NCBI GenBank assembly: GCA_963844715.1
Contig: CAWJPJ010000006.1
Span: 32,001 to 96,000 of the forward strand
Reading direction: 5' to 3'
Source of the DNA: an uncultured Phycisphaerales bacterium
GTDB lineage: Bacteria > Planctomycetota > Phycisphaerae > Tepidisphaerales > Tepidisphaeraceae
DNA: 64,000 nucleotides
Shown piece after piece: positions 9,687 to 61,931 of the stretch. A program made the translations under genes and the position numbers. The notes under the pieces were generated by a model that worked only from the letters and a program-made list of their open reading frames with translations, was not told the origin of the DNA and did no database searches. The number at the start of each line of letters is the position of its first letter. Positions within the stretch are counted from its first letter, which is position 1.

Positions 9687-9836
9687 GGGCCTGTCTGATG
9701 AATCCAAAATCCTGAAATAGCGACGGATCATGGCGAGCTTGGCCATGGCCTGAAAGTTCACCGCCAGTTTCTCGTAACGCGTGCCCAGGCGGCGATTCTC
9801 CTTCATCCAATTCACGCAACGCTCCACCACGTTCCG
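9687..9836 (-). mobile_element. 150-bp right-end fragment of the 887-bp IS5 element
   Basis: Matches the reverse complement of the 3' end of the copies at 43702, 45988 and 61045 (one synonymous-type base aside); starts with IR GGGCCTGTCTGATGAATC after TA. Confidence 0.92.
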
Positions 9837-40347: not shown

Positions 40348-40686
40348 CTAGGCGACCGCATTTCGTCCCTGTCGGCGCGGACCGATTGTTCCGTGGCGCT
40401 TTCCGAATAAATCTGATTCGCCGGAGAGCTTTAGAATCTCAAAATACATCAGCAGAGTCGCTCGATCGACGGTTTGCTCATATTCTCCCGCGTCATTTAC
40501 TAGCCACAGGCAATCAAGACCGTCTTTTTCGGAATAGAAGCCGACGCGGTACTTTCGGCCGATCAATGTTTTCCAATGCGGAGTGCCGTCGTCGTACCGT
40601 TTGAGTTGTACGAGAGTCTTGGGCGGGATGACCGTCGGAATTCGCATTTCAGGAGCTATTATATCGTGATTATTTGGGTCAGCCAA
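40348..40686 (-). CDS. Hypothetical protein
   Basis: 112-aa ORF, lower GC, starts 2 nt after the upstream stop. Confidence 0.55.
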   Translation of the reverse strand: MADPNNHDIIAPEMRIPTVIPPKTLVQLKRYDDGTPHWKTLIGRKYRVGFYSEKDGLDCLWLVNDAGEYEQTVDRATLLMYFEILKLSGESDLFGKRHGTIGPRRQGRNAVA

Positions 40687-40688
40687 AT

Positions 40689-40883
40689 TTACGATTTCGC
40701 TTTAGCCGCTTCAGCCATGAATCTTGTCCAATCCGAAACTGGAATCGATGGCGGCATAATGCCATTATGCGGGATTGGACTACCATCTAAACGATAACGC
40801 CCGACATTTCTTTTTTTCCGGTACCGATCAACGTGGGGCGATCCATGCCTGACCTTGTCTAGCTTATAGACATCGCGGGACAT
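40689..40883 (-). CDS. Small basic hypothetical protein
   Basis: ATG overlaps the UbiD-family stop (TGATG); MSRDVYKLDKVRHGSPHVDRY. Confidence 0.55.
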   Translation of the reverse strand: MSRDVYKLDKVRHGSPHVDRYRKKRNVGRYRLDGSPIPHNGIMPPSIPVSDWTRFMAEAAKAKS

Positions 40884-42451
40884 CAGAACCCATATTCCTT
40901 CCACCGCGACGCAACCAACTCAATCGTCTTCCTATCCATCTCCAATTCCCTCGGCCACCGGCGGACTTTCCCTTCGCCCGGCCATTTCGCCGTTGCGTCA
41001 AACCCGATTTTGCTCCCCGTCCCGTGATCGGGGCTGGCGTGATCGAGAATGTCGACGGGGCCGTGCACAATTTCCGCGTCGCGCTGGGGATCGCAATTGG
41101 CGAACCAGTGGAAAAGAACGTCCTGCTCGTTGTGCACGTCGACGTTTTCGTCCACGACGATGATGAATTTCGTGAACGCCATCTGCCCCGCGCCCCAGAC
41201 GGCGTGCATGACTCGCCGCGCCTGCATCGGGTATTCCTTGCGGATTTTCAGAAAAGCGCAATTGTGGAACACGCCGCTGATCGGGAGGTTGTAGTCGACA
41301 ATATCCGGAATGATCGTTTGCAACAGCGGCAGGAAGATGCGCTCGGTGGCTTTGCCGAGGAAATAGTCCTCCATCGGCGGCTTGCCGACGATCGTCGTCG
41401 GATAGATCGGATCCTTGCGATGGGTGATCGCCGTGATGTCGTAGGCGGGATAAAAATCCGCCAGGCTGTAGAAACCCGTGTGATCGCCGAAAGGGCCTTC
41501 GAGTAGAGTTTCTTTCGGATCGACCCAGCCTTCAATGACGATCTCCGCATTGGCCGGAACTTCCAGCGGAATGGTCCGGCAAGGCACCAGTTCGATTCCG
41601 CCGCCGTTCAGGAAACCCGCGAACAGCAACTCCTCAATTCCCGGCGGCAGCGGCGCGGTGGCGGCGTAGGGCAAAACGCTCTCACCGCCGAGGACGATGG
41701 CCAGCGGCATTTTCTCGCCGCGGGCGGCGTATTTGCGGAAATGCCGCGCCCCGTCGTGGTGCATGTGCCAGTGCATGGCGCAGCGGCGTGACGAGTATTG
41801 CTGCACGCGATACATCCCGATATTGCGGTCGCCGCTATCCGGGTCCTGAGTGAAAATGCCCCCAAAGGTGATATACCGCCCCGTCCCGCGCGGCGCCGCG
41901 GCTATTCTCGCCGCATCCGCGTGATCGATGATCTCCCCGCTCCCCACATCGCCATCCAGCGGCCAGCATTGAATCAGCGGCAATCGATTCAAATCCGCCT
42001 TCTCCCCCTCCAGCACAACCTGCTGGCAAATCCCGCTCCGCACACTCCGAGGCGGAAAGCTCCCCAGCTTCAGCAAATCCGGCAGCTTCTTCATCTTCTC
42101 AATCAGCGTCGTAGGAATCTCCGGCTTAACCAGCGCCGCCACGCGCTGTGCCAGCTCCCCCAGCGACCGGCTGCCCAGCGCCTGGTTGATCCGCCAATAG
42201 GACCCAAACGTGTTGATCGCCACAGGCATGTCCGACCCGCGCACATCCTGAAAGAGCAGCGCCTTCCCACCAAGGGAAGCGGCGGGGGATTTGTCCGGCT
42301 CCGAATGCCCATGCGGCGCAGCCGTCTTGCACATCCGATCGCAAATCCCGGCGATTTCAAGCTTGGGTTCGACAGGGGCGGCGACTTTGGCGAGTTCGCC
42401 TTCTCTTTCGAGGAGCTTGAGGAAGTCGGAGAGGGTTTCGGTCGCCGCCAT
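40883..42451 (-). CDS. UbiD-family decarboxylase (menaquinone/futalosine-pathway type)
   Basis: NIGMYRVQ, VPANAEIVIEG, EGPFGDHTGFY, GKPPMED, LDHAS, GSKIGFDAT. Confidence 0.95.
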   Translation of the reverse strand: MAATETLSDFLKLLEREGELAKVAAPVEPKLEIAGICDRMCKTAAPHGHSEPDKSPAASLGGKALLFQDVRGSDMPVAINTFGSYWRINQALGSRSLGELAQRVAALVKPEIPTTLIEKMKKLPDLLKLGSFPPRSVRSGICQQVVLEGEKADLNRLPLIQCWPLDGDVGSGEIIDHADAARIAAAPRGTGRYITFGGIFTQDPDSGDRNIGMYRVQQYSSRRCAMHWHMHHDGARHFRKYAARGEKMPLAIVLGGESVLPYAATAPLPPGIEELLFAGFLNGGGIELVPCRTIPLEVPANAEIVIEGWVDPKETLLEGPFGDHTGFYSLADFYPAYDITAITHRKDPIYPTTIVGKPPMEDYFLGKATERIFLPLLQTIIPDIVDYNLPISGVFHNCAFLKIRKEYPMQARRVMHAVWGAGQMAFTKFIIVVDENVDVHNEQDVLFHWFANCDPQRDAEIVHGPVDILDHASPDHGTGSKIGFDATAKWPGEGKVRRWPRELEMDRKTIELVASRWKEYGF

Positions 42452-42528
42452 GAGGGGGGATGGTAAAGGGGGAGGTTGCGATTAACAAATTCCAGCTGGC
42501 GCCGAGGGGAACCTCGTTGTAACGTGTG

Positions 42529-42573
42529 CTTCCCCTCGCCATGTACTCGGGGAGAGGGCACGGGTGAGGGGTC
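42529..42573. repeat. REP-like element (CCCTCACCC..CCCTCTCCCC..GAGGG type)
   Basis: CCCCTCGCCATGTACTCGGGGAGAGGGCACGGGTGAGGGG in intergenic DNA. Confidence 0.5.
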
Positions 42574-42824
42574 CTTGTCTGCCCGAGGTCCCAAAATATC
42601 CCATGCCCTGCGCGAGAGGAGGGGAGCAGGGGAACATTTGATCAGCTGAGCAGTAGACGATGCGGGACAAAGGCGGACAAAAGTTTACAGTCTTGTTGCG
42701 TTTGGCGGGTTGGGGGGAGTTTGGCTGTTGACTAACTATCAGACTTCTGCGCGGGGGCCAATTGATAGATCGCTCAATTCGCCGGGTCGGCGGTTAGGGT
42801 CGCCTTGCCACTCCCTTTCCCCCT

Positions 42825-45119
42825 TTATTCCTCTGAGCGCTCCAACCACAGTTCGCGCTGGGATGTAATAGGCGCTTTTTCCTGCAATTCGTTGACCGTC
42901 TCTAGCATCTTGTTTAGCCGCTCCGCGTCCGCCTCGTCGCAGGTAGTATTCGTCATAAGTCGCAAAATGATGCTGCGCATTCGATGGAAAAACCACCTCG
43001 GCCGATCATTGAGGCGCTGGGCGTCTAGATATTCGAGGAGCGCCTCGCAAAACACGTGGTGGTTTCCCTGAATTATTTCACTTACGTCCTCCAAACCCTT
43101 TTGGATCCTCACGTTTCCCAAACCGTCGAATGCTTCGGGCATCGCGATTAGAATAATCTTCTTATACTTCTCTTCATTTACCAGCATCGCCAGTCTGGGT
43201 AGCACAACGAGAAACTCTTTTTTCGCCGAGCGGAGGTTGTCCTGGTCCTTGCTGACGACGTCCATCGCTTTATTGAGAAATGCAAGGCGCTGACCGTGCG
43301 GTAACTGCAAAAACTCTTGGGCGTCGAGCTTTTGAATTGCCAAAATAATCTCGTGTAGCTGTCCGTCCACTAACACTTCGGAAAGCTTGTACGGCGCCAC
43401 CAGCGACCGCTTCAGCATTCGCTCGAATTCGGATGCCTTCTTTATTCTTTGGGCTCGTGGCAAAATGCAATCTTGGATTAACTTGTCGATGGAAGGTGGA
43501 ATTGCCTCGTTTATGGTACTTAGCGCGACATAATCGCCGGGAGGAATTCTGTGGCCGGACAGAGCCTCATAAAGGCAGTTCGCGAGCACGTAAATATCAT
43601 CCGATGGTTCGGGTTTCTCGCCATTTTCTTGCTCCGGCGACATGTAGCCCGGAGTCCCAATTATGTCACCAGATGGTGTCACTCTTCGCTGATCGTCGCT
43701 AGGGCCTGTCTGATGAATCGCTTTTGGTTATAAATAGCGGTTTTCAGACGAGGTGTCACGGATGCGACGTTATGAGCTCACGGATGAGCAGTACGAGTTG
43801 ATCGGCGATCTGCTGCCCGGCAACGGCAAGCGCGGCGGGCAGTGGAACGACCACCGCACCACGCTCAACGGCATGTTCTGGATTCTGCACTCGGGCGCTC
43901 AATGGCGCGAGATGCCCGAACGTTACGGCAGATGGCAAAGCGTCTACGACCGCTTCAACCGCTGGAGAAAGGACGGAACGATTGATCGAATCCTCCAGCG
44001 GCTGCAGATGAGGTTGGACAAGCAAGGACGAATCGACTGGGACCTGTGGTGCATCGACGGCACCAATGTGCGAGCCAGTCGATCCGCCGCCGGAGCCAGA
44101 AAATCAAAACCGCCCCGGAAGAACCGGCGGATCACGCGTTGGGCCGCAGCCGAGGCGGGTGGGGCAGCAAGCTCCACCTGGTTACTGACGGCCAGGGAGT
44201 TCCGCTCGCCGTCGAGGCCAGCGCCGGCCAATGCCACGAGAGCCGGTACGTGGAGCCGGTGATGAACGCGATGCGCATCGGTCGCCGCCGTCGTCGCCCC
44301 AGGAGGCTGGCGGGCGACAAGGGATACAGTTACGGAAATGTGCGGCGATGGCTGCGTCGCCACCGAATCCAAGCGGTGATCCCGGCGAAATCGAATCAGC
44401 CGCCGCAGGAGAACTTTGATCGCAAGGCGTATCGCCGACGGAACGTGGTGGAGCGTTGCGTGAATTGGATGAAGGAGAATCGCCGCCTGGGCACGCGTTA
44501 CGAGAAACTGGCGGTGAACTTTCAGGCCATGGCCAAGCTCGCCATGATCCGTCGCTATTTCAGGATTTTGGATTCATCAGACAGGCCCTAGATAGCGCGA
44601 TGCCAAAGTCGACCAAATAACAGTGCGTCCTATTGGCCGTCACGATTATGTTCTCGGGTTTTATGTCCCTGTGAATAATATTCTTGTCGTGTGCGTGGCC
44701 CAAGGCCGAGGCTATCTGTCCAAAACAGACCTGGACCTCAGCCAGCGTTAGCACCCCATCCTTCAAAAGTTCACGCAAGTTATTTCCGTGAACATACTCA
44801 AACACTATTAAAAAGTGTCCGTCGTCGCCAAATTTAACGTCGTAGACGGATGGAATATTGGGATGTCTAAAGCCAGCCAGAATGCGGGCTTCTTTCCTAA
44901 ATCTTTCCTTGTCTGTATCGTTAGCGGATCCCCAGAGCGGGTCCAGAATCTTTAAAGCCACGTCCCTTTGTAGGTCGTTATCGAATGCTTTTTTTATGCG
45001 CCGAACCCCCCTCGTCCCTCATCTTGTTTTTCAACCGTAAAACGCTCTTGGCCGGGTGGAGACGTACCGGAGCTAGCGCTTACGCGTTTCGGAGGTGTCG
45101 CACGTGTAGTATCGCCCAT
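42825..45119 (-). pseudogene. Hanks-type Ser/Thr kinase with helical C-terminal domain, interrupted by IS5 (plus frameshift ~44998)
   Basis: GRGGFG, VALK, HPNIP, HRDIKPEN, DFG; removing the IS and one TA gives in-frame DFGIALS|SDDQRRVTPSGDIIGTPGYMSPE. Confidence 0.93.
43702..44588 (+). mobile_element. IS5-family element (IS427-like), 887 bp, copy 1
   Basis: 18-bp perfect IR GGGCCTGTCTGATGAATC; TA duplicated; two overlapping ORFs (ELTDEQ, IDGT, GRSRGG, GDKGY, RNVVER). Confidence 0.96.
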
Positions 45120-45194
45120 GGCACTTTTTCCTTATGCTGGGGGACCAATTACGATACAGAAGGGGCTAACGCAAGCGATACGTGTAATCACTCC

Positions 45195-45707
45195 TCATAG
45201 AAGGGTAAACAACTTAATAGCGACCATACAACCCAGGGCCGGCAGTTGAACAATCAGAATCAGTAGAATGCCTACGCGCATCCACCAGAATTTCTTCAAC
45301 ACTCCTTTCGCCATTGCATAGGTTTGAGTCGCCAAATCTCGTTCAAGCGCCTCTTCACTGACAAGTCGCGCTTCGTCGATATAGCCTGCCGCATTTTCGT
45401 GTCCCGCAACATCGCCGTAGAAAAGTGCTGAGTTCGCTTTCCGGGGCGACCACAAATACGGCAGCACCATAAAGAACGTCAGCCAAATCGACGCGAGGGA
45501 GATCGCCGTAACGATGCAGAGCAGAAACGCAGCCAAATGAATCTCAACCGTGTGGCCCGCGTAAAGGCTCAAGATGTCGCCCTGCTTAAGTACGATGCCG
45601 CCGACGATTATTGTGTTGTACCCGATAACCACCGCGCCCTTTTGGTTGGTCGACATGGCGTATGAATCGAAACGACCGATAATTTTCCAGAGAGATTCCG
45701 ATGTCAT
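45195..45707 (-). CDS. pycTM: Pycsar-type membrane effector (PycTM / DUF5706-like)
   Basis: RFDSY..STNQKG, two TM helices, P....S..ALFYGDVA, DLATQTYAMAK..KKF, C-terminal TM; ATG overlaps the cyclase stop. Confidence 0.8.
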   Translation of the reverse strand: MTSESLWKIIGRFDSYAMSTNQKGAVVIGYNTIIVGGIVLKQGDILSLYAGHTVEIHLAAFLLCIVTAISLASIWLTFFMVLPYLWSPRKANSALFYGDVAGHENAAGYIDEARLVSEEALERDLATQTYAMAKGVLKKFWWMRVGILLILIVQLPALGCMVAIKLFTLL

Positions 45708-45987
45708 CGGTATCCCTCGGGCGCAGTTGCATAATCACCATCCGCAAGCATATCGTCAGGATAGATGATTTTGTGATCGTCGTAGCTTGCTTGCTCGATC
45801 CTTACAGTTCCTCCCACACTCTTGGGGAACAGGTCGAAAACGTGATCCGTGCAATGGGCGTAATCTTGCGCTGCCGACGCCAGCTTGCACGCTTTATTCA
45901 CCGCATCTGCGTAGGCCGTGATTTCATGTGCGTTTGTCAAGCCGATGCGCGTGAAAATTATGTCTCCCGCCGCGACACCAGCACCTA
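45704..45987 (-). pseudogene. pycC: C-terminal remnant of a class III nucleotidyl cyclase (PycC-like), 5' part lost at IS5
   Basis: GAGVAAGDIIFTRIG...AYADAVNKACKL fits the GIGIxxG..IG..GxxVNxAxKL cyclase motif. Confidence 0.75.
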
Positions 45988-46874
45988 GGGCCTGTCTGAT
46001 GAATCGCTTTTGGTTATAAATAGCGGTTTTCAGACGAGGTGTCACGGATGCGACGTTATGAGCTCACGGATGAGCAGTACGAGTTGATCGGCGATCTGCT
46101 GCCCGGCAACGGCAAGCGCGGCGGGCAGTGGAACGACCACCGCACCACGCTCAACGGCATGTTCTGGATTCTGCACTCGGGCGCTCAATCGCGCGAGATG
46201 CCCGAACGTTACGGCAGATGGCAAAGCGTCTACGACCGCTTCAACCGCTGGAGAAAGGACGGAACGATTGATCGAATCCTCCAGCGGCTGCAGATGAGGT
46301 TGGACAAGCAAGGACGAATCGACTGGGACCTGTGGTGCATCGACGGCACCAATGTGCGAGCCAGTCGATCCGCCGCCGGAGCCAGAAAATCAAAACCGCC
46401 CCGGAAGAACCGGCGGATCACGCGTTGGGCCGCAGCCGAGGCGGGTGGGGCAGCAAGCTCCACCTGGTTACTGACGGCCAGGGAGTTCCGCTCGCCGTCG
46501 AGGCCAGCGCCGGCCAATGCCACGAGAGCCGGTACGTGGAGCCGGTGATGAACGCGATGCGCATCGGTCGCCGCCGTCGTCGCCCCAGGAGGCTGGCGGG
46601 CGACAAGGGATACAGTTACGGAAATGTGCGGCGATGGCTGCGTCGCCACCGAATCCAAGCGGTGATCCCGGCGAAATCGAATCAGCCGCCGCAGGAGAAC
46701 TTTGATCGCAAGGCGTATCGCCGACGGAACGTGGTGGAGCGTTGCGTGAATTGGATGAAGGAGAATCGCCGCCTGGGCACGCGTTACGAGAAACTGGCGG
46801 TGAACTTTCAGGCCATGGCCAAGCTCGCCATGATCCGTCGCTATTTCAGGATTTTGGATTCATCAGACAGGCCC
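45988..46874 (+). mobile_element. IS5-family element, 887 bp, copy 2
   Basis: Same as copy 1 except G>C at 46190 (W>S); TA on both sides but the flanks belong to different genes. Confidence 0.96.
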
Positions 46875-46990
46875 TAATTGAATTTCCCGATAAATTTATA
46901 CAACCGGGCAAGTATACGCTTGAAATTTATGTAACCGACGATGATCACGGACTTTATGCAGAACAATCGGTCGACGTTGTTTTTCAGTAG
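46875..46990 (+). pseudogene. 3' remnant of an unrelated plus-strand gene (Ig/PKD-like tail)
   Basis: PGKYTLEIYVTDDDHGLYAEQSVDVVFQ*, followed by a plus-strand terminator. Confidence 0.5.
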
Positions 46991-47097
46991 ACGATCAGCA
47001 TAAGATCACGGTCGAAAGAACAGCGCGAAAGGAGGCTGTATGTGCGTCTGCTCGCGTAAGTAGGGCTAATCTGGCCCGTTAATTTGTGCCTATAAGT

Positions 47098-47122
47098 AGC
47101 CCGTCCATCGACGGGCTTTTTT
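47098..47122 (+). terminator. Rho-independent terminator
   Basis: AGCCCGTC-CATC-GACGGGCT followed by a T-run. Confidence 0.85.
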
Positions 47123-47246
47123 GTCAGCCTTTGGAGAGGGGGTTATGAAGAGGGCCAATTCCCGAGATGAACATGGATGCGGAATAACAACAAACGGGGT
47201 GAAGTAACTAAAGTTTAGCGACGCATCTGGAATGCCAGGATAGCGA

Positions 47247-47320
47247 GGGACAGTCATCTATTTGTGGAGGTTAAATTAATGGGTGGCTGTCCCTGGTTCC
47301 CTGGTTCCCCCTGGTTCCCC
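47247..47320. repeat. GGGACAG..CTGTCCC palindrome with CCCTGGTT tandem tail (REP-like)
   Basis: GGGACAGTCATCTATT pairs with AATGGGTGGCTGTCCC; three CCCTGGTT units. Confidence 0.6.
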
Positions 47321-47887
47321 CAGCCCCCCCCCGTTGCGATGTGTAGGATCGAAGATTTATGATTTCCATCGGCATTTGCAGAGTGGCTACCGTCGTGACT
47401 TCCGACGGCGAAAATAAGCAAATAAATCCCGCAGGCGAAGCCATGCAATGAAAATGTTTATCAGCGCTGATAGGCCGAAGGGAGCGGCGGCGAAGATCAG
47501 CATTGGAGGTCCCCGTGAATGAATTTTGCCAGAAGCTGATTCGTACGGCAGAAGCCTCCTTGGGTTCGGCCGCTGCGATAATCGCACTCGTTTGCACCAT
47601 AGATTCTATTCGCGGGGATCAAAATCCGCTGATTAACAAGATGTGGATTACTGCGGCAGCATTGCCGCTGGAAAATCGTGGTTCTCTGCGGGTTGCTGGC
47701 GGCTATTCCAAAGTTTGTTGAATGTAAATTATATTCCTCGCAAGCCACCCCGTTTCCCTATTCCCCCATTCACAACAAAAGTGTCAAGTTTTGTCGGCGC
47801 GGGCTCCACGCATCCAAAAGATTTCCGCAAGTCACGATCAAAAAACATTTCGCGGGCTGCAGCGCACGCATTCCTATCGCGGCAAGT

Positions 47888-49510
47888 CTACGCGCTCGCT
47901 TTCTTGCGCACGATCACACTCGGCCCCGCGACGGCGCGGACGATTATTTCCGACCCGGCGGGGAGGAAGCCGGTTTCGCTTACCACCGACGTGATTCTTT
48001 TATCGGCAATCGCCGGGTCGAAGAACTCCGCCGAGCCGCCGGGGCGTAACTCGAGATAGCGCTTTTCCTACCGCGCCGATAGGCGGCCAGCCTATGGCGG
48101 GGGAGGGATCGCGCGGGGCGGATTGGGGGGTTGGGCCGCCGCTGGTGGCGGTGAGGATTAATCGATTCAGAAGCGGGACTTTGGGCATGTATCTTCCGAT
48201 CCAAATCCACAGGGCCAGGGAGATTCCCGTCGCGGCGGCGACGACGATGATGCCTTTTTGCATTCCGATCCAGAGGGCGCGCCAATTTTCCGGGGCGAAG
48301 GGGACGCCGTTGCTCTGGGGGACGAAGGTCATGACCAGGCCGAACATGACGAAGAGGCCGCCGGTGATTCCGGGGAAGAAATGGCCGGGGAGGACGATCT
48401 CGACGGCGACGAGTCCGAGGCCGACGAAGATGACGAGGATTTCCCACCACTGGGCGTATCCGGTGAGCATGGGGACGCCGAGCATGAGGAGCAGGGCGAG
48501 CAGGCCGACGGTTTCGGCGACGCCGTGGCCGGGGGCGTGGAGGACGATGTAGAGGCATTGGAGGAAGATGACGATGAGCAAGCCGCGGACGGCGGCGCCG
48601 CTGAGGACGCTGACCAGTTCGTCCCCAAATCCGGGCGAAATGTCGGCGATGACCGTCCAGCCGCGCTGATGCGCCAGGTCTTGCGGGCTGGCGGCGATCC
48701 CGCTCGCCAGCCCGTATTGCACGGCTTGCTGGCTGTCCACCGTGAGCAAAGCGTCGGAGCCGACGATCGGGACGGAAGCGCCGGGGACATCGTGCCACTG
48801 TTTGGTGGCGATCAGGTCGGCGTATTGTTTGTCATCCACGAATCGCTTCCCGCCCTTGTCATTTTGCACCCAGTAGACGGAATGCTTTACGGCGACCATG
48901 GCGGCAGCGAGTAGCGGATCATGATGATTTCGCGCCGCGCTTTCTGCGAAGTCGAGCAGGACAGGCGCCTCCGCCTTGGCGCGCTCGGTTTCGGGCATGG
49001 CCTCGAGGCCTTCGGGGCCGAAGACGATGGGGCGCAATCGCCGAGGGAGGCGGAATCGCTCATGACGATCTCATCGCAAGCCATGGCGATCATCGCTCCG
49101 GCGGAGATGGCTTTGTCCTTCACATAGGCGACGATATGAAGATCGCTCTGGCGTTTGATGAAGCGGGACATGTCCAAGCCGTCGGTGAGGATTCCGCCGT
49201 AGGTGTCGATGCTGAGAATGACGGTGCCGCCGCCCATGCCGCGGACCTGGTCGATGCGCTGCTCGAGTTGATCGCGGGTGTAGTCATTGATCTCGCCCTG
49301 GATTTGGATGATGACGGCTTTGGTGTTCACCGACGGAGCCGTGGTCGGAGCATCGGCCTTCGCGACGGTAGAAAATAAAAATGCAACCGCGGAGACGCAG
49401 AGGCACAGAGACAGACGCGGAGAAGACAAGAAATTCAATGAAAGGAATTTCCTCCGCGTCTCCGCGTCTCTGCGGTTGAATTGGCCTTTCTTTAGCGCGG
49501 GGGGCCTCAT
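47888..49510 (-). CDS. NfeD-family protein (ClpP-like protease, membrane and OB domains); frameshifts ~49030 and ~48050
   Basis: IQGEI, IDTYGG, AISAGAMIAMACDEIVM; EIVLPG; LRPGGSAEF tail. Confidence 0.85.
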
Positions 49511-49562: not shown

Positions 49563-50129
49563 ATGCGGCGGGTTTTTCTGGTGTTTTCGGCGGTTTGCCT
49601 GGCGGCGTCCATTATGTTGGCCGTGATGTGGGTGCAGAGCTATCGGGCGGAGGATGACTGGTATGTCGCATGGCACTCGAAAGCCGGATCGGACAATATT
49701 CTTTATGGCCTCGGTGCGCGCTCGATACGAGGCGGCATCGAAATCACCTTTGGTCGCACGCTCATACCGGCGAGATACACTCCCGGCGCGGTTGTGCGGC
49801 ACAACCGGTATCGTCCGCCGCTGGCGGGGCGGGGCGTTTTTGGATTTCGCTGGATCCTCGACTTGTCGCCAAATTCGATCAACCATTACCTCCTTAAGCT
49901 CTGGCATCCCACGCTGCTGACGGATTTTCCTTATTGGGCGGCCGTCGTCGCGCTCGCTCTTCCAGCGATTATTTATCTGCCGTTTTATAAACGGGCAGCA
50001 AGACCGGGATGCTGTGCGGTGTGCGGCTACGACTTGCGGGCTTCGCCGCAGAGATGTCCGGAATGCGGCACACCTACGCCGGGTCATTTGAGCAGCGGAT
50101 CAGGGACTCCAACGCCGCGTGGGCTTTGA
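49563..50129 (+). CDS. Membrane protein with C-terminal zinc ribbon
   Basis: N-terminal TM; CAVCGYDLRASPQRCPECG. Confidence 0.8.
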   Translation: MRRVFLVFSAVCLAASIMLAVMWVQSYRAEDDWYVAWHSKAGSDNILYGLGARSIRGGIEITFGRTLIPARYTPGAVVRHNRYRPPLAGRGVFGFRWILDLSPNSINHYLLKLWHPTLLTDFPYWAAVVALALPAIIYLPFYKRAARPGCCAVCGYDLRASPQRCPECGTPTPGHLSSGSGTPTPRGL

Positions 50130-51100
50130 ATGTGTCCAGGGCATTGGCGCCAGTTGCAGACCTTCTTCGAGAGTTTCGGCGCCTTCGGCTACTACCAAAG
50201 CGGCGGCGGCGTTTAGGAGGGAGATGTCGCGCTTGGGGCCGGGTTTGGCGGCTAGGACATCCTGCAAGGCGGCGGCGGCTTCGTCGATGTTGTTCACCTG
50301 GAGATCGCTTAGCTTGGCGTAGGGGATGCCGAATTCGGCGGGGTCCAGGGTCCAGGTGTGGATTTGGCCTTCGCGGAGTTCGCTGATGCGGGTGGGGCCG
50401 AGGGTGGAGATTTCGTCGAGGCCGTCCTCGGCGTGGACGACCCAGGCGCGATGGCTGCCCAGGTCGCGGAGGACGGCGGCGAGGCGATCGGTTAGTTCCG
50501 GGGCGAAGACGCCTAGGAGTTGGTGTTTGGCGCGGCCGGGGTTGGTGAGGGGGCCGAGGAGATTGAAGATGGTGGGGATGCCGAGGGATTTACGGGCCTC
50601 GGCGACGAATTTCATGGCGGGGTGATGGGCGCGGGCGAAGGCGAAGCAGATGTTGGCTTTATCGAGGCAGTGAGAGAGGGTTTCGGGGGAGACTTCGAGT
50701 TTTAGGCCGAGTTTTTCCAGGACATCGGCGGAGCCGGCGCGGCCGGAGGCGGAGCGATTGCCGTGCTTGACGACTTTGACGCCGCATGCGGCGGCGATGA
50801 GGGCGGCGGCGGTGGAGACGTTGAAGGTGTGGCGGACGTCGCCCCCGGTGCCGCAGGTGTCGAGCAATATGCCGGCTTCTTCGCAGGGAACGGGGATGAC
50901 TTTTTGCGCATGACGGTGGCGGCGCCGACGAGTTCCTCGACGGTGGTGCCCTTGGCGGCCAAACCGACGAGCAGGCCGCCGATTTGGGCGTCGTTGGCCT
51001 GGCCGCACATGATGTGGGTGAAGGCATCGCGGGCTTCGTCGCGCGTGAGGTCCTCGCGGCGGGAAAGTTTTAGGAGGATGTCGGGGATGGAGAGAGACAC
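50074..51100 (-). CDS. trpD: Anthranilate phosphoribosyltransferase (frameshifts ~50905 and ~50150)
   Basis: DTCGTGGD, FNVST, KHGNRSASG, TIFNLLGPLTNP, DGLDEIS. Confidence 0.95.
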
Positions 51101-51105
51101 GTTTT

Positions 51106-51250
51106 GAATGACGAATGATAAATGATAAATGACGAATGAAATTCCAATGTTCGAATGATCGAAGGGGCATTCGGTCATTCGGACATTGGGTCATTGATTC
51201 GTCCCGCCACGGCGGATGCTGCGCACATTTATCATTTATCATTCGTCATT
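51106..51250. repeat. Inverted heptamer (RAATGAY)n intergenic repeat
   Basis: GAATGAC GAATGAT AAATGAT AAATGAC facing TCATTTATCATTCGTCATT. Confidence 0.75.
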
Positions 51251-52701: not shown

Positions 52702-53688
52702 ATGCTATACTTAACCATCATGTTTTCGCGTCGTCGGGCGGTTTATTCCATCGCTTCGGTGCTTGTGCTGGCGCTGGGGATTTCTGCGCGGGGGGATCAG
52801 GCGGCTTCGCGGCCTAGCGTGCCGGATTGTTTTATGCGGTTTTTGGATGATGGGCAGGGGGGCGGGTCGCTGCAATCGGCGGAAGTTGTGTTTGTGAATC
52901 CGCAGGGCGTGAAAGTCCATTTGGTCGCAGCGATTCATATTGGAGAGAGGGCATACTACGACGGACTGAACAAGGATTTTCGGCAGGATGACGCGGTTTT
53001 GTATGAGATGGTTATGCCTAAGGACGCCCATCCGCCGGCGCCGGCGGGGAGTGGGGATTCGGATGACGACGCGCGGGAGCAGAACCCGATTTCGGATTTT
53101 CAGCGGTTTCTGAAGGATTCGCTGCAATTGGATTTTCAGCTCGACGACATCGATTACACGGCTCCCAATTTTGTGCATGCCGATCTGGACAGCGAAACCT
53201 TCGAGCGGATGCAGGCGCAGCGCGGGGAATCGTTTGAAACGCTGATGCTTCAGCAGTTGGTCAACGCGCTGAATCGAAAGCCTCAGAACGGGGACAATGC
53301 GGATGCGCAGTCTTTGTCGGACATGGTTCACGTTTTGACGCGGCCGGATATGGAGAGGCAGATCAAGATCGTTCTGGCTCGGCAACTGGGGCAGATGGAT
53401 TCGGCGGCGATGGGGCTGGACGGGCCGCAGGGGTCGGTCATTCTCACCGAGCGGAACAAGGCGGCAATGGCCGCGCTGGCGGATGTACTCACGGATGGGA
53501 AGAGGAATATCGCGATTTTCTTCGGGGCGGCGCATATGCCGGATTTGAGCAAGAGGCTGGAAGCTTAGGGGTTCGCGATCGATTCGGTTCAGTGGCGCAT
53601 GGCCTGGGATTTGAAGATTCGCGCGGATCAGCCATCGGCGGTGGAACTTCTGTTTGACAAAGTATTCGGCCCAGCCGATCAAAAATAG
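52702..53688 (+). CDS. Exported conserved hypothetical protein with in-frame TAG at 53566-53568
   Basis: Signal peptide; HIGERAYY, VLYE, ERN, FGAAHMPD; same frame continues 40 codons past TAG. Confidence 0.75.
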
Positions 53689-53723
53689 TAGAATCCCGCC
53701 CGAGTTAAAATGAATCCAGCCAC

Positions 53724-54346
53724 ATGAACCAACTGCGCGGAAAATTCATCGTTCTGGACGGCGGCGAAGGGTGCGGGAAAAGCACCCAGGCGCAGCTTCT
53801 CAAGGAATCTTTGGAAAACTCCGGCGTGGCCACGCTGCTGGTCCGCGATCCCGGCTCGACGCGCATTGGGGAAATGATTCGCAAAATTCTTCTCGATCCG
53901 GACAATCGCGAAATGTCGATGCGGCTGCGAAATGCTTTTATACATGGCGGCCCGAGCGCAGCTGATGCGGGAATTGATATTGCCGGCTTTGGCTGCAGGG
54001 GAAATGCGTGGTTTGCGACCGGTTCGTTTCCAGCACGCTGGCTTATCAGCTTGGAGGGGACGGTTTGACCGAGGCGGAAATTCGCAGCACGGCGGATTCG
54101 GCGATAGCGGGGCGCTGGCCGGATTTGACGATCATTTTGGATATGCCTGTGGAAAAGAGCGAGGCGAGGCTTCAGCGGGCGAAGGATCGGATTGAGCAAA
54201 GGCCGGCGGAGTATCACCGGAGGGTGAGGGAGAATTATCTGGCGCAGTCGAGGAAAGATTCGGAGAAGGTGAAGTGGGTCGCCGCGGATCGGGATCGAGA
54301 ATCTGTCCACAAGGATATTCTGGCGTTGATCGGCAGTATCGCTTAA
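53724..54346 (+). CDS. tmk: Thymidylate kinase (two frameshifts, ~53930 and ~54005)
   Basis: FIVLDGGEGCGKST, RDPG, LLYMAARAQ, CDRFVSSTLAYQ, PDLTIILD. Confidence 0.93.
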
Positions 54347-61044: not shown

Positions 61045-61931
61045 GGGCCTGTCTGATGAATCGCTTTTGGTTATAAATAGCGGTTTTCAGACGAGGTGTC
61101 ACGGATGCGACGTTATGAGCTCACGGATGAGCAGTACGAGTTGATCGGCGATCTGCTGCCCGGCAACGGCAAGCGCGGCGGGCAGTGGAACGACCACCGC
61201 ACCACGCTCAACGGCATGTTCTGGATTCTGCACTCGGGCGCTCAATGGCGCGAGATGCCCGAACGTTACGGCAGATGGCAAAGCGTCTACGACCGCTTCA
61301 ACCGCTGGAGAAAGGACGGAACGATTGATCGAATCCTCCAGCGGCTGCAGATGAGGTTGGACAAGCAAGGACGAATCGACTGGGACCTGTGGTGCATCGA
61401 CGGCACCAATGTGCGAGCCAGTCGATCCGCCGCCGGAGCCAGAAAATCAAAACCGCCCCGGAAGAACCGGCGGATCACGCGTTGGGCCGCAGCCGAGGCG
61501 GGTGGGGCAGCAAGCTCCACCTGGTTACTGACGGCCAGGGAGTTCCGCTCGCCGTCGAGGCCAGCGCCGGCCAATGCCACGAGAGCCGGTACGTGGAGCC
61601 GGTGATGAACGCGATGCGCATCGGTCGCCGCCGTCGTCGCCCCAGGAGGCTGGCGGGCGACAAGGGATACAGTTACGGAAATGTGCGGCGATGGCTGCGT
61701 CGCCACCGAATCCAAGCGGTGATCCCGGCGAAATCGAATCAGCCGCCGCAGGAGAACTTTGATCGCAAGGCGTATCGCCGACGGAACGTGGTGGAGCGTT
61801 GCGTGAATTGGATGAAGGAGAATCGCCGCCTGGGCACGCGTTACGAGAAACTGGCGGTGAACTTTCAGGCCATGGCCAAGCTCGCCATGATCCGTCGCTA
61901 TTTCAGGATTTTGGATTCATCAGACAGGCCC
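61045..61931 (+). mobile_element. IS5-family element, 887 bp, copy 3, intergenic
   Basis: Matches copy 1; inserted at TA within a CTAGCAA heptamer repeat. Confidence 0.96.

Follow-up and report, generated by a model that had tools for sequence, protein, structure and literature searches.

The window, by which we mean the whole stretch of 64,000 nt that was analysed, carries three minus-strand genes, verified in the sequence: a remnant of a cyclase gene (pycC), an intact effector gene (pycTM) and a gene for a Hanks Ser/Thr kinase (Table 1). We interpreted them as two likely independent modules, a Pycsar/Pucsar-type pair and a kinase that likely stood alone in defence, which lie in an acquired island and whose enzymes were broken by IS5 elements. 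This interpretation as a whole is about evenly balanced. Its central part, the independence of the two modules, is highly probable.

Table 1. Features of the locus, with positions in the window.
Feature	Position	Strand	Basis or remark
ubiD	40883-42451		Flanks the island
Accessory island, limits approximate	42470..47900	.	~5.4 kb, between ubiD and the nfeD-like gene
Kinase C-lobe (GTPGYMSPE, DDIY) and ~190-aa alpha-solenoid tail	42825..43701	-	Sequence, AlphaFold
IS5-family element, 887 bp, two-ORF transposase	43702..44588	+	NF033580, PF13340, PF01609
Hanks Ser/Thr kinase, N-terminal part	44589..45119	-	PF00069 89 bits, six-frame reading
pycTM, intact, 170 aa	45195..45707	-	PF18967 and PADLOC
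pycC/pucC-like class III nucleotide cyclase, C-terminal 93-aa remnant	45704..45987	-	PADLOC, alignment, profile
Second IS5 copy (1 nt different)	45988..46874	+	Borders the pycC remnant on its truncated (5') side
Unrelated gene, 37-aa C-terminal remnant, Ig/PKD-like by eye	46877..46990	+	PF07495 E 0.019
Terminator-like hairpin	47098-47117		3' of the 37-aa remnant
nfeD-like gene (nfeD by Pfam)	Ends near 48000		Other flank of the island

The earlier note had described the three genes as co-oriented and lower in GC. Both points held: the GC of the island genes was 0.47-0.54 vs 0.57-0.65 in the five flanking genes, and their GC3 was 0.55-0.61 vs 0.62-0.80. In G001, a genome of the same genus, ubiD and the nfeD-like gene were ~250 bp apart, and 42470-47900 gave no alignment. 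The interval was therefore taken to be an acquired island. This empty-site evidence comes from G001 only, the two flanking genes not being neighbours in G002, G003, G016 and G018. Both modules lie in this one small island, which now holds known defence parts in decay. The runs that contained this DNA were soil metagenomes.

The counts of promoters and terminators at the locus were no different from those of shuffled sequences. The PF07495 match of the 37-aa remnant was below the cut-off, and there was no NCBIfam match. Direct repeats of 20 nt (42677-42696 and 47775-47794, 80% identical) lie near the edges of the island, and may be attachment-like scars or chance. Downstream of ubiD, a 112-aa minus-strand ORF (window positions 40348-40686) had no Pfam or PADLOC match.

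The effector, which had been read as intact and PycTM-like, was placed in the PycTM family by PF18967 (41.9 bits, cut-off 27.2), a check that had been proposed for it. PADLOC gave a PycTM model at E 2.5e-26 and a generic 2TM Effector model, which scores higher, at E 1e-33. The hydrophobicity profile showed two strong stretches and a weaker N-terminal one, with a maximum Kyte-Doolittle 19-mer of 2.5. The cyclase stop overlaps the pycTM start in an ATGA at 45704-45707, the overlap that the earlier note had pointed out.

No relative of PycTM came up in word-indexed protein searches. A pattern scan of GTDB contigs produced 52 matches, none of them confirmed, and a plasmid search produced two distant ones. 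PF18967 genes without a nearby cyclase were seen in the host's family at L279, L281-L283 and L286, including a tandem pair in G533. A PycTM match alone is therefore no marker of a Pycsar system.

Both enzymes had been called fragmented. This was correct for the kinase, which is split by an IS; the cyclase is truncated and not merely interrupted, with 93 codons (45704-45985) remaining. The remnant had no Pfam match, and PF00211, also suggested as a check, did not recognize it; the single match of this model in the genome was an unrelated gene of 735 aa. PADLOC gave PycTM models on the effector and only PycC models on the remnant (E 2e-4 to 0.02). The remnant was 35% identical over 78 aa (E 1.6e-11) to the cyclase of G451, which is encoded directly upstream of a pycTM, and matched a profile of seven other cyclase domains, built with the remnant left out, at E 8.8e-13. 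The PF18967 score, the PycC matches and the similarity to the G451 cyclase bore out the Pycsar-like identity. No relatives of the cyclase fragment were found by word-indexed protein searches, and a plasmid search gave no match. For the intact G451 cyclase, the closest one, the best sequence match in the PDB was 6YII (E 5e-6), which is the clade A PaPycC (PMC11224242).

The alignment showed that the remnant keeps the GxG strand and the NxAxKL motif and lacks the base pocket and the two Asp that bind metal. Homology to a PycC-type class III cyclase is present next to pycTM and a complete two-Asp cyclase is absent, and the gene was interpreted as a relic, not an intact Pycsar member. The residues for cUMP/cCMP specificity are in the lost region (PMC11224242), and related cyclases make cGMP for the same effector family (bioRxiv 10.64898/2026.08.12.744502). 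For these two reasons the product may have been cUMP, cCMP or cGMP, and not necessarily the cyclic pyrimidine of the earlier note.

PF00211, tblastn, the cyclase profile and the IS flanks yielded no N-terminal half of the cyclase in the assembly, which is 85% complete; tblastn and the profile returned only the C-terminal piece and the unrelated 735-aa gene. On the pycC side, only seven codons stay open beyond the second IS, and the far flank reads as the last part of another, unrelated gene on the plus strand. A simple IS insertion with read-through past the second IS was rejected on these seven codons and on the cyclase profile, which gave nothing over 46875-47950 (best E 0.044, wrong strand). 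Three residues adjoining the second IS happen to resemble the expected cyclase strand. As the assembly lacks the catalytic half, removal of the IS would not restore the cyclase. We infer that a deletion associated with the IS took away the promoter of pycC together with the 5' part of the gene. PycTM is now left without a cognate cyclase, and we predict that the locus has no activity today.

In an intact Pycsar pair, a cyclic mononucleotide is made on phage infection, the membrane effector PycTM opens, and the infected cell is killed. The pair at this locus, when intact, would have followed the same order, from phage infection through the cyclic mononucleotide and PycTM opening to cell death. 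Like Pycsar with PycTM (PMC11224242), the locus has a gene for a class III cyclase that overlaps one for a PF18967 effector; it differs in that the cyclase is truncated and a kinase follows. The cyclase superfamily and the 3TM effector family are shared with the Pucsar TM systems (bioRxiv 10.64898/2026.08.12.744502), whose guanine-pocket residues fall in the half that is lost here or can be placed only with it.

Three-gene units were also seen in four genomes of the host's family (L292:4936-7915, L296:2492-5369, L297:4721-7759 and L299:2305-5118). Each is composed of a dual-domain cyclase (526-580 aa), a middle gene and pycTM; the middle genes are E2-like by eye, and that of L292 had no Pfam match. 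They fit 'Pycsar-like-4' of the Pucsar preprint (bioRxiv 10.64898/2026.08.12.744502), and the unit is the recurrent three-gene Pycsar-like form in the host's family. These four relatives have an extra gene between cyclase and pycTM, whereas the present locus has none at that position, the only one compared, since any genes upstream of pycC are lost. At L290:1721-5447 (G477), pycTM comes before pycC, and the pair adjoins a large serine recombinase.

The element in the kinase was assigned to the IS5 family by NF033580 (162 bits, cut-off 110), its IS5 DDE transposase, terminal inverted repeats of ~17 bp and a short TA duplication. It sits directly after the kinase DFG, with flanks CTA/TAG; the flanks of the second copy are CTA/TAA. 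The genome (4.55 Mb) contains 28 full copies, with CTA/TAG flanks in 26/28 and CTA/TAA in 2/28. By simple arithmetic a stretch of 3.2 kb would be expected to hold ~0.02 copies. Two were observed, each in an enzyme gene. Local hopping and the dispensability of island DNA can account for the IS pair; it is possible that the insertions were selected because they silence toxic genes. Elsewhere in the window there is a third full copy (61045-61931) and a 150-bp partial one (9687-9836). Many of the 28 copies target CTAG within heptamer-like CTAGCAA repeats.

The kinase ATG at 45119 is exactly 75 bp past the pycTM stop, the spacing given in the earlier note, and is preceded by AAGGA, a ribosome-site-like motif. 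Length arithmetic gave 468 aa, against the ~470 aa reported before. The N-terminal part (PF00069 cut-off 31.7) contains the Gly loop, VALK, HRDIKPEN and DFG. Across the two halves and the family alignment, the full Hanks set was recovered: Gly loop, beta3 Lys, alphaC Glu, HRD-K-N, DFG, (A/S)PE and the subdomain IX Asp. The helical tail of ~200 aa without a TM segment was also there: ~190 aa, all helical, with maximum Kyte-Doolittle 19-mers of 0.91 and 1.39 in the two halves of the kinase.

In the assembly the kinase is broken twice, by the IS5 element and, near 45000, by a frameshift of one base. One contig of run X1 (assembled separately, depth 4.9; X1 is possibly the source sample) has one extra base at this point, which gives a Gly loop like that of the homologues. 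From this sequence comparison the frameshift is probably an assembly error. Because the X1 contig has the extra base, only the IS break is likely real. Among the X1 contigs the IS-kinase junction is present, and none of them has the joint without an IS. The kinase is interrupted in the activation segment and is predicted to be inactive today. P0006, the C-half of a kinase (272 aa, 99% identical) from another contig (440 kb), suggests a close strain or a second assembly with the same break.

AlphaFold predicted 12 helices in the tail (pLDDT 92.7). The model suggests a solenoid of helical hairpins resembling HEAT/ARM repeats, the scores being generic only: the fold search gave HEAT/ARM-like matches with a best Z of 10.1, within the generic range for helical repeats, and no match at E <= 0.001 in PDB and BFVD. 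A sequence match to 3AQB (E 0.007) was taken as chance. No model of Pfam, PADLOC, PHROGs or NCBIfam matched the tail, word-indexed protein searches found nothing, and there was no usable ESM Atlas match. A HMMER library search, on the other hand, vs these searches, gave 66 representatives at E <= 0.001, of which 15 reach back to the HRD motif and most others are shorter pieces. P0012 (604 aa) has the helical tail and a non-kinase N-terminus, primase-like by eye; it is a fusion or an assembly chimera.

A full-length family homologue was predicted as a PknB-like kinase with a helical tail. The P0013 kinase domain superimposed on PknB with a TM score of 0.77-0.81, depending on the target, at ~32% identity. 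The kinase-domain fold is thus that of PknB-type Hanks kinases, which the locus kinase departs from in having no TM helix or PASTA domain and a soluble alpha-solenoid tail; NF033483 gave 199.6 bits, far below 450.

PD-T4-6 is a Ser/Thr kinase used in phage defence, and the kinase activity of Stk2 arrests the cell. The PADLOC PD-T4-6 model matched the kinase at 222 bits, in the kinase domain only. An unrelated control kinase scored higher (270 bits), and the PD-T4-6 matches were therefore considered non-specific. The likeness to Stk2, KKP and PD-T4-6 is that of phage-defence Ser/Thr kinases, with no specific profile match here and a tail that matches no model. Stk2 of staphylococci is a single locus and KKP is prophage-borne (PMC11341870). 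KKP consists of two kinases and a phosphatase; the island has no second kinase or phosphatase, which argues against KKP.

The relatives of the kinase were 32-55% identical to it, and the named family members came from candidate division KSB1 and Magnetococcales. The family is rare and its spread patchy. The tail was found in 3/141 genomes of the order and 1/261 of the class sample, the 260 further class genomes being without it. In the phylum sample, full-length family matches were found in 2/401 genomes, with four candidates scored per genome. The tail was found in 0/301 and 0/261 genomes sampled in the phyla of G560 and G563, respectively. Kinase-motif scans of genome and metagenome contigs showed the tail in 0/78 and 1/77 of the loci listed, which were mostly generic kinases, and are therefore of little use for judging the family. 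In viral contigs, 25 loci were picked by a degenerate DNA pattern, one of them real and the same as one already found; further viral-contig scans added no member. The tail had no match in plasmids or GenBank phages, and none of 36 plasmid kinase matches was a full-length family member.

Three of the six other kinase loci were in a mobile context, two of these three coming from a viral collection that was searched deliberately. The L026 kinase is in a provirus, between terminase and portal; that of L025 is on a viral contig, with an AbiJ_NTD4 gene and a DNA methylase nearby; and that of L236 is in an element beside tRNA-Ser, together with genes for an integrase, a ParA-like protein and an HNH protein. 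The L235 kinase follows groEL, and L214 has no mobile marker; with the deliberate choice of the viral collection, this makes the case for a defence role weak.

A defence role and a non-defence role for the kinase are about equally probable. As a stand-alone defence kinase, it would be soluble, with the helical solenoid binding a trigger protein, perhaps a phage-made one; binding would release the kinase activity and arrest the cell, by analogy with Stk2. It may have landed behind pycTM through the build-up of defence cargo in such islands, and perhaps shared its transcript without needing the pair. We tentatively propose, at somewhat less than an even chance, an undescribed one-gene family of anti-phage Hanks kinases, present in proviruses and integrated elements of several phyla, in which the HEAT-like tail senses a phage protein and which here served as a back-up behind the Pycsar pair. 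Two observations were counted against two independent modules with a stand-alone defence kinase: the lack of a terminator-like site after pycTM, and the IS hits in both enzymes.

The two modules could also be independent with the kinase an ordinary accessory signalling kinase, without a defence role and beside the Pycsar relic by chance; we regard this as possible and somewhat doubtful. It would be expected from the tens to hundreds of Ser/Thr kinase candidates per genome in the phylum, and agrees with the lack of a defence profile specific to the family or of any model for the tail in the four libraries, and with L235 and L214, which have no defence neighbours. The patchy spread across distant phyla, the insertion of single genes into the head module of a provirus and into a tRNA-integrated element, the low GC3 of the kinase and its lack of a TM or extracellular sensor speak against it. 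The kinase family is a lead, since few kinase-based defences have been described and the tail has no family model. Intact members exist in a provirus and an integrated element and are open to cloning.

The earlier note had also considered a three-gene variant in which the kinase regulates the signalling, with two adjacent systems as the alternative, and had asked for recurrence of tailed kinases beside pycC-pycTM. None was seen in the samples reached. Cyclase and PycTM profiles matched at 0/6 other kinase loci (L025, L026, L137, L214, L235 and L236), and PF18967 in 0/5 whole genomes or records with the kinase family. Conversely, the kinase and tail profiles matched at 0/7 loci with cyclase and pycTM (G451, G152, G477, G033, G495, G468 and G501), which include G451, the closest cyclase relative. 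These seven were the ones with a detectable cyclase beside pycTM among 27 stretches around PF18967 matches (17 and 10; two G067 matches and a sub-cut-off G522 match were not extended). Three other stretches contained generic kinases without the tail. Among the 141 genomes of the order, PycTM was found in 12, the tail in 3, and both only in the present genome (G000). With 6 and 7 loci the samples are small; completeness is 82-93% for several of the genomes, L137 covers 1.1 kb upstream only, and L235 ends 0.9 kb downstream. The overlap expected by chance is ~0.2 genomes in 141, so the counts show no obligatory link, not avoidance.

These separate distributions agree with two adjacent systems and not with the three-gene variant. 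A functional trio, in which PycC or PycTM is a substrate of the kinase, or the kinase and the pair act in synergy, is unlikely, and direct regulation of Pycsar signalling by the kinase is improbable. The trio would account for the shared orientation, the short gap, the similar GC3, the inactivation of both enzymes and the failure to find a terminator-like site between pycTM and the kinase. It also has a precedent in the synergistic hybrid operon of clade F Pycsar and type IV Thoeris, where a second module is encoded in the Pycsar operon (PMC13069673). That pairing was tested and recurs, however, in 107/149 systems (PMC13069673), whereas the pairing here was seen once. The kinase gene does not overlap pycTM and is preceded by a ribosome-site-like motif of its own, whereas pycC and pycTM overlap, which supports independent modules. 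No description of a system of Pycsar, PycTM and kinase was found in open-access full text, and the word 'kinase' was absent from the main texts of the Pycsar papers searched. Given the 32-55% identity of the relatives, a young kinase sub-lineage may be tied to Pycsar.

That the locus is in part an assembly artefact, with a misjoin at the second IS hiding an intact pycC or with breaks absent from the living strain, is very improbable: the 28 near-identical IS copies invite misjoins, at least one indel error is likely in this part of the incomplete genome, and the CTA/TAA junction is the rarer one, but no IS flank or other genome site encodes the cyclase N-half, and the X1 contigs carry both the IS-kinase and IS-right-flank junctions (the latter with a loose end at 44590), the pycC-IS junction being known from the assembly alone.

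The locus shows that an IS burst and an assembly indel are able to hide defence islands. The nfeD-like gene (48000-49510) and the genes at 50100-51242 and 53679-54068, which we take to be trpD-like and tmk-like, respectively, look split over two frames, which suggests more assembly indels.
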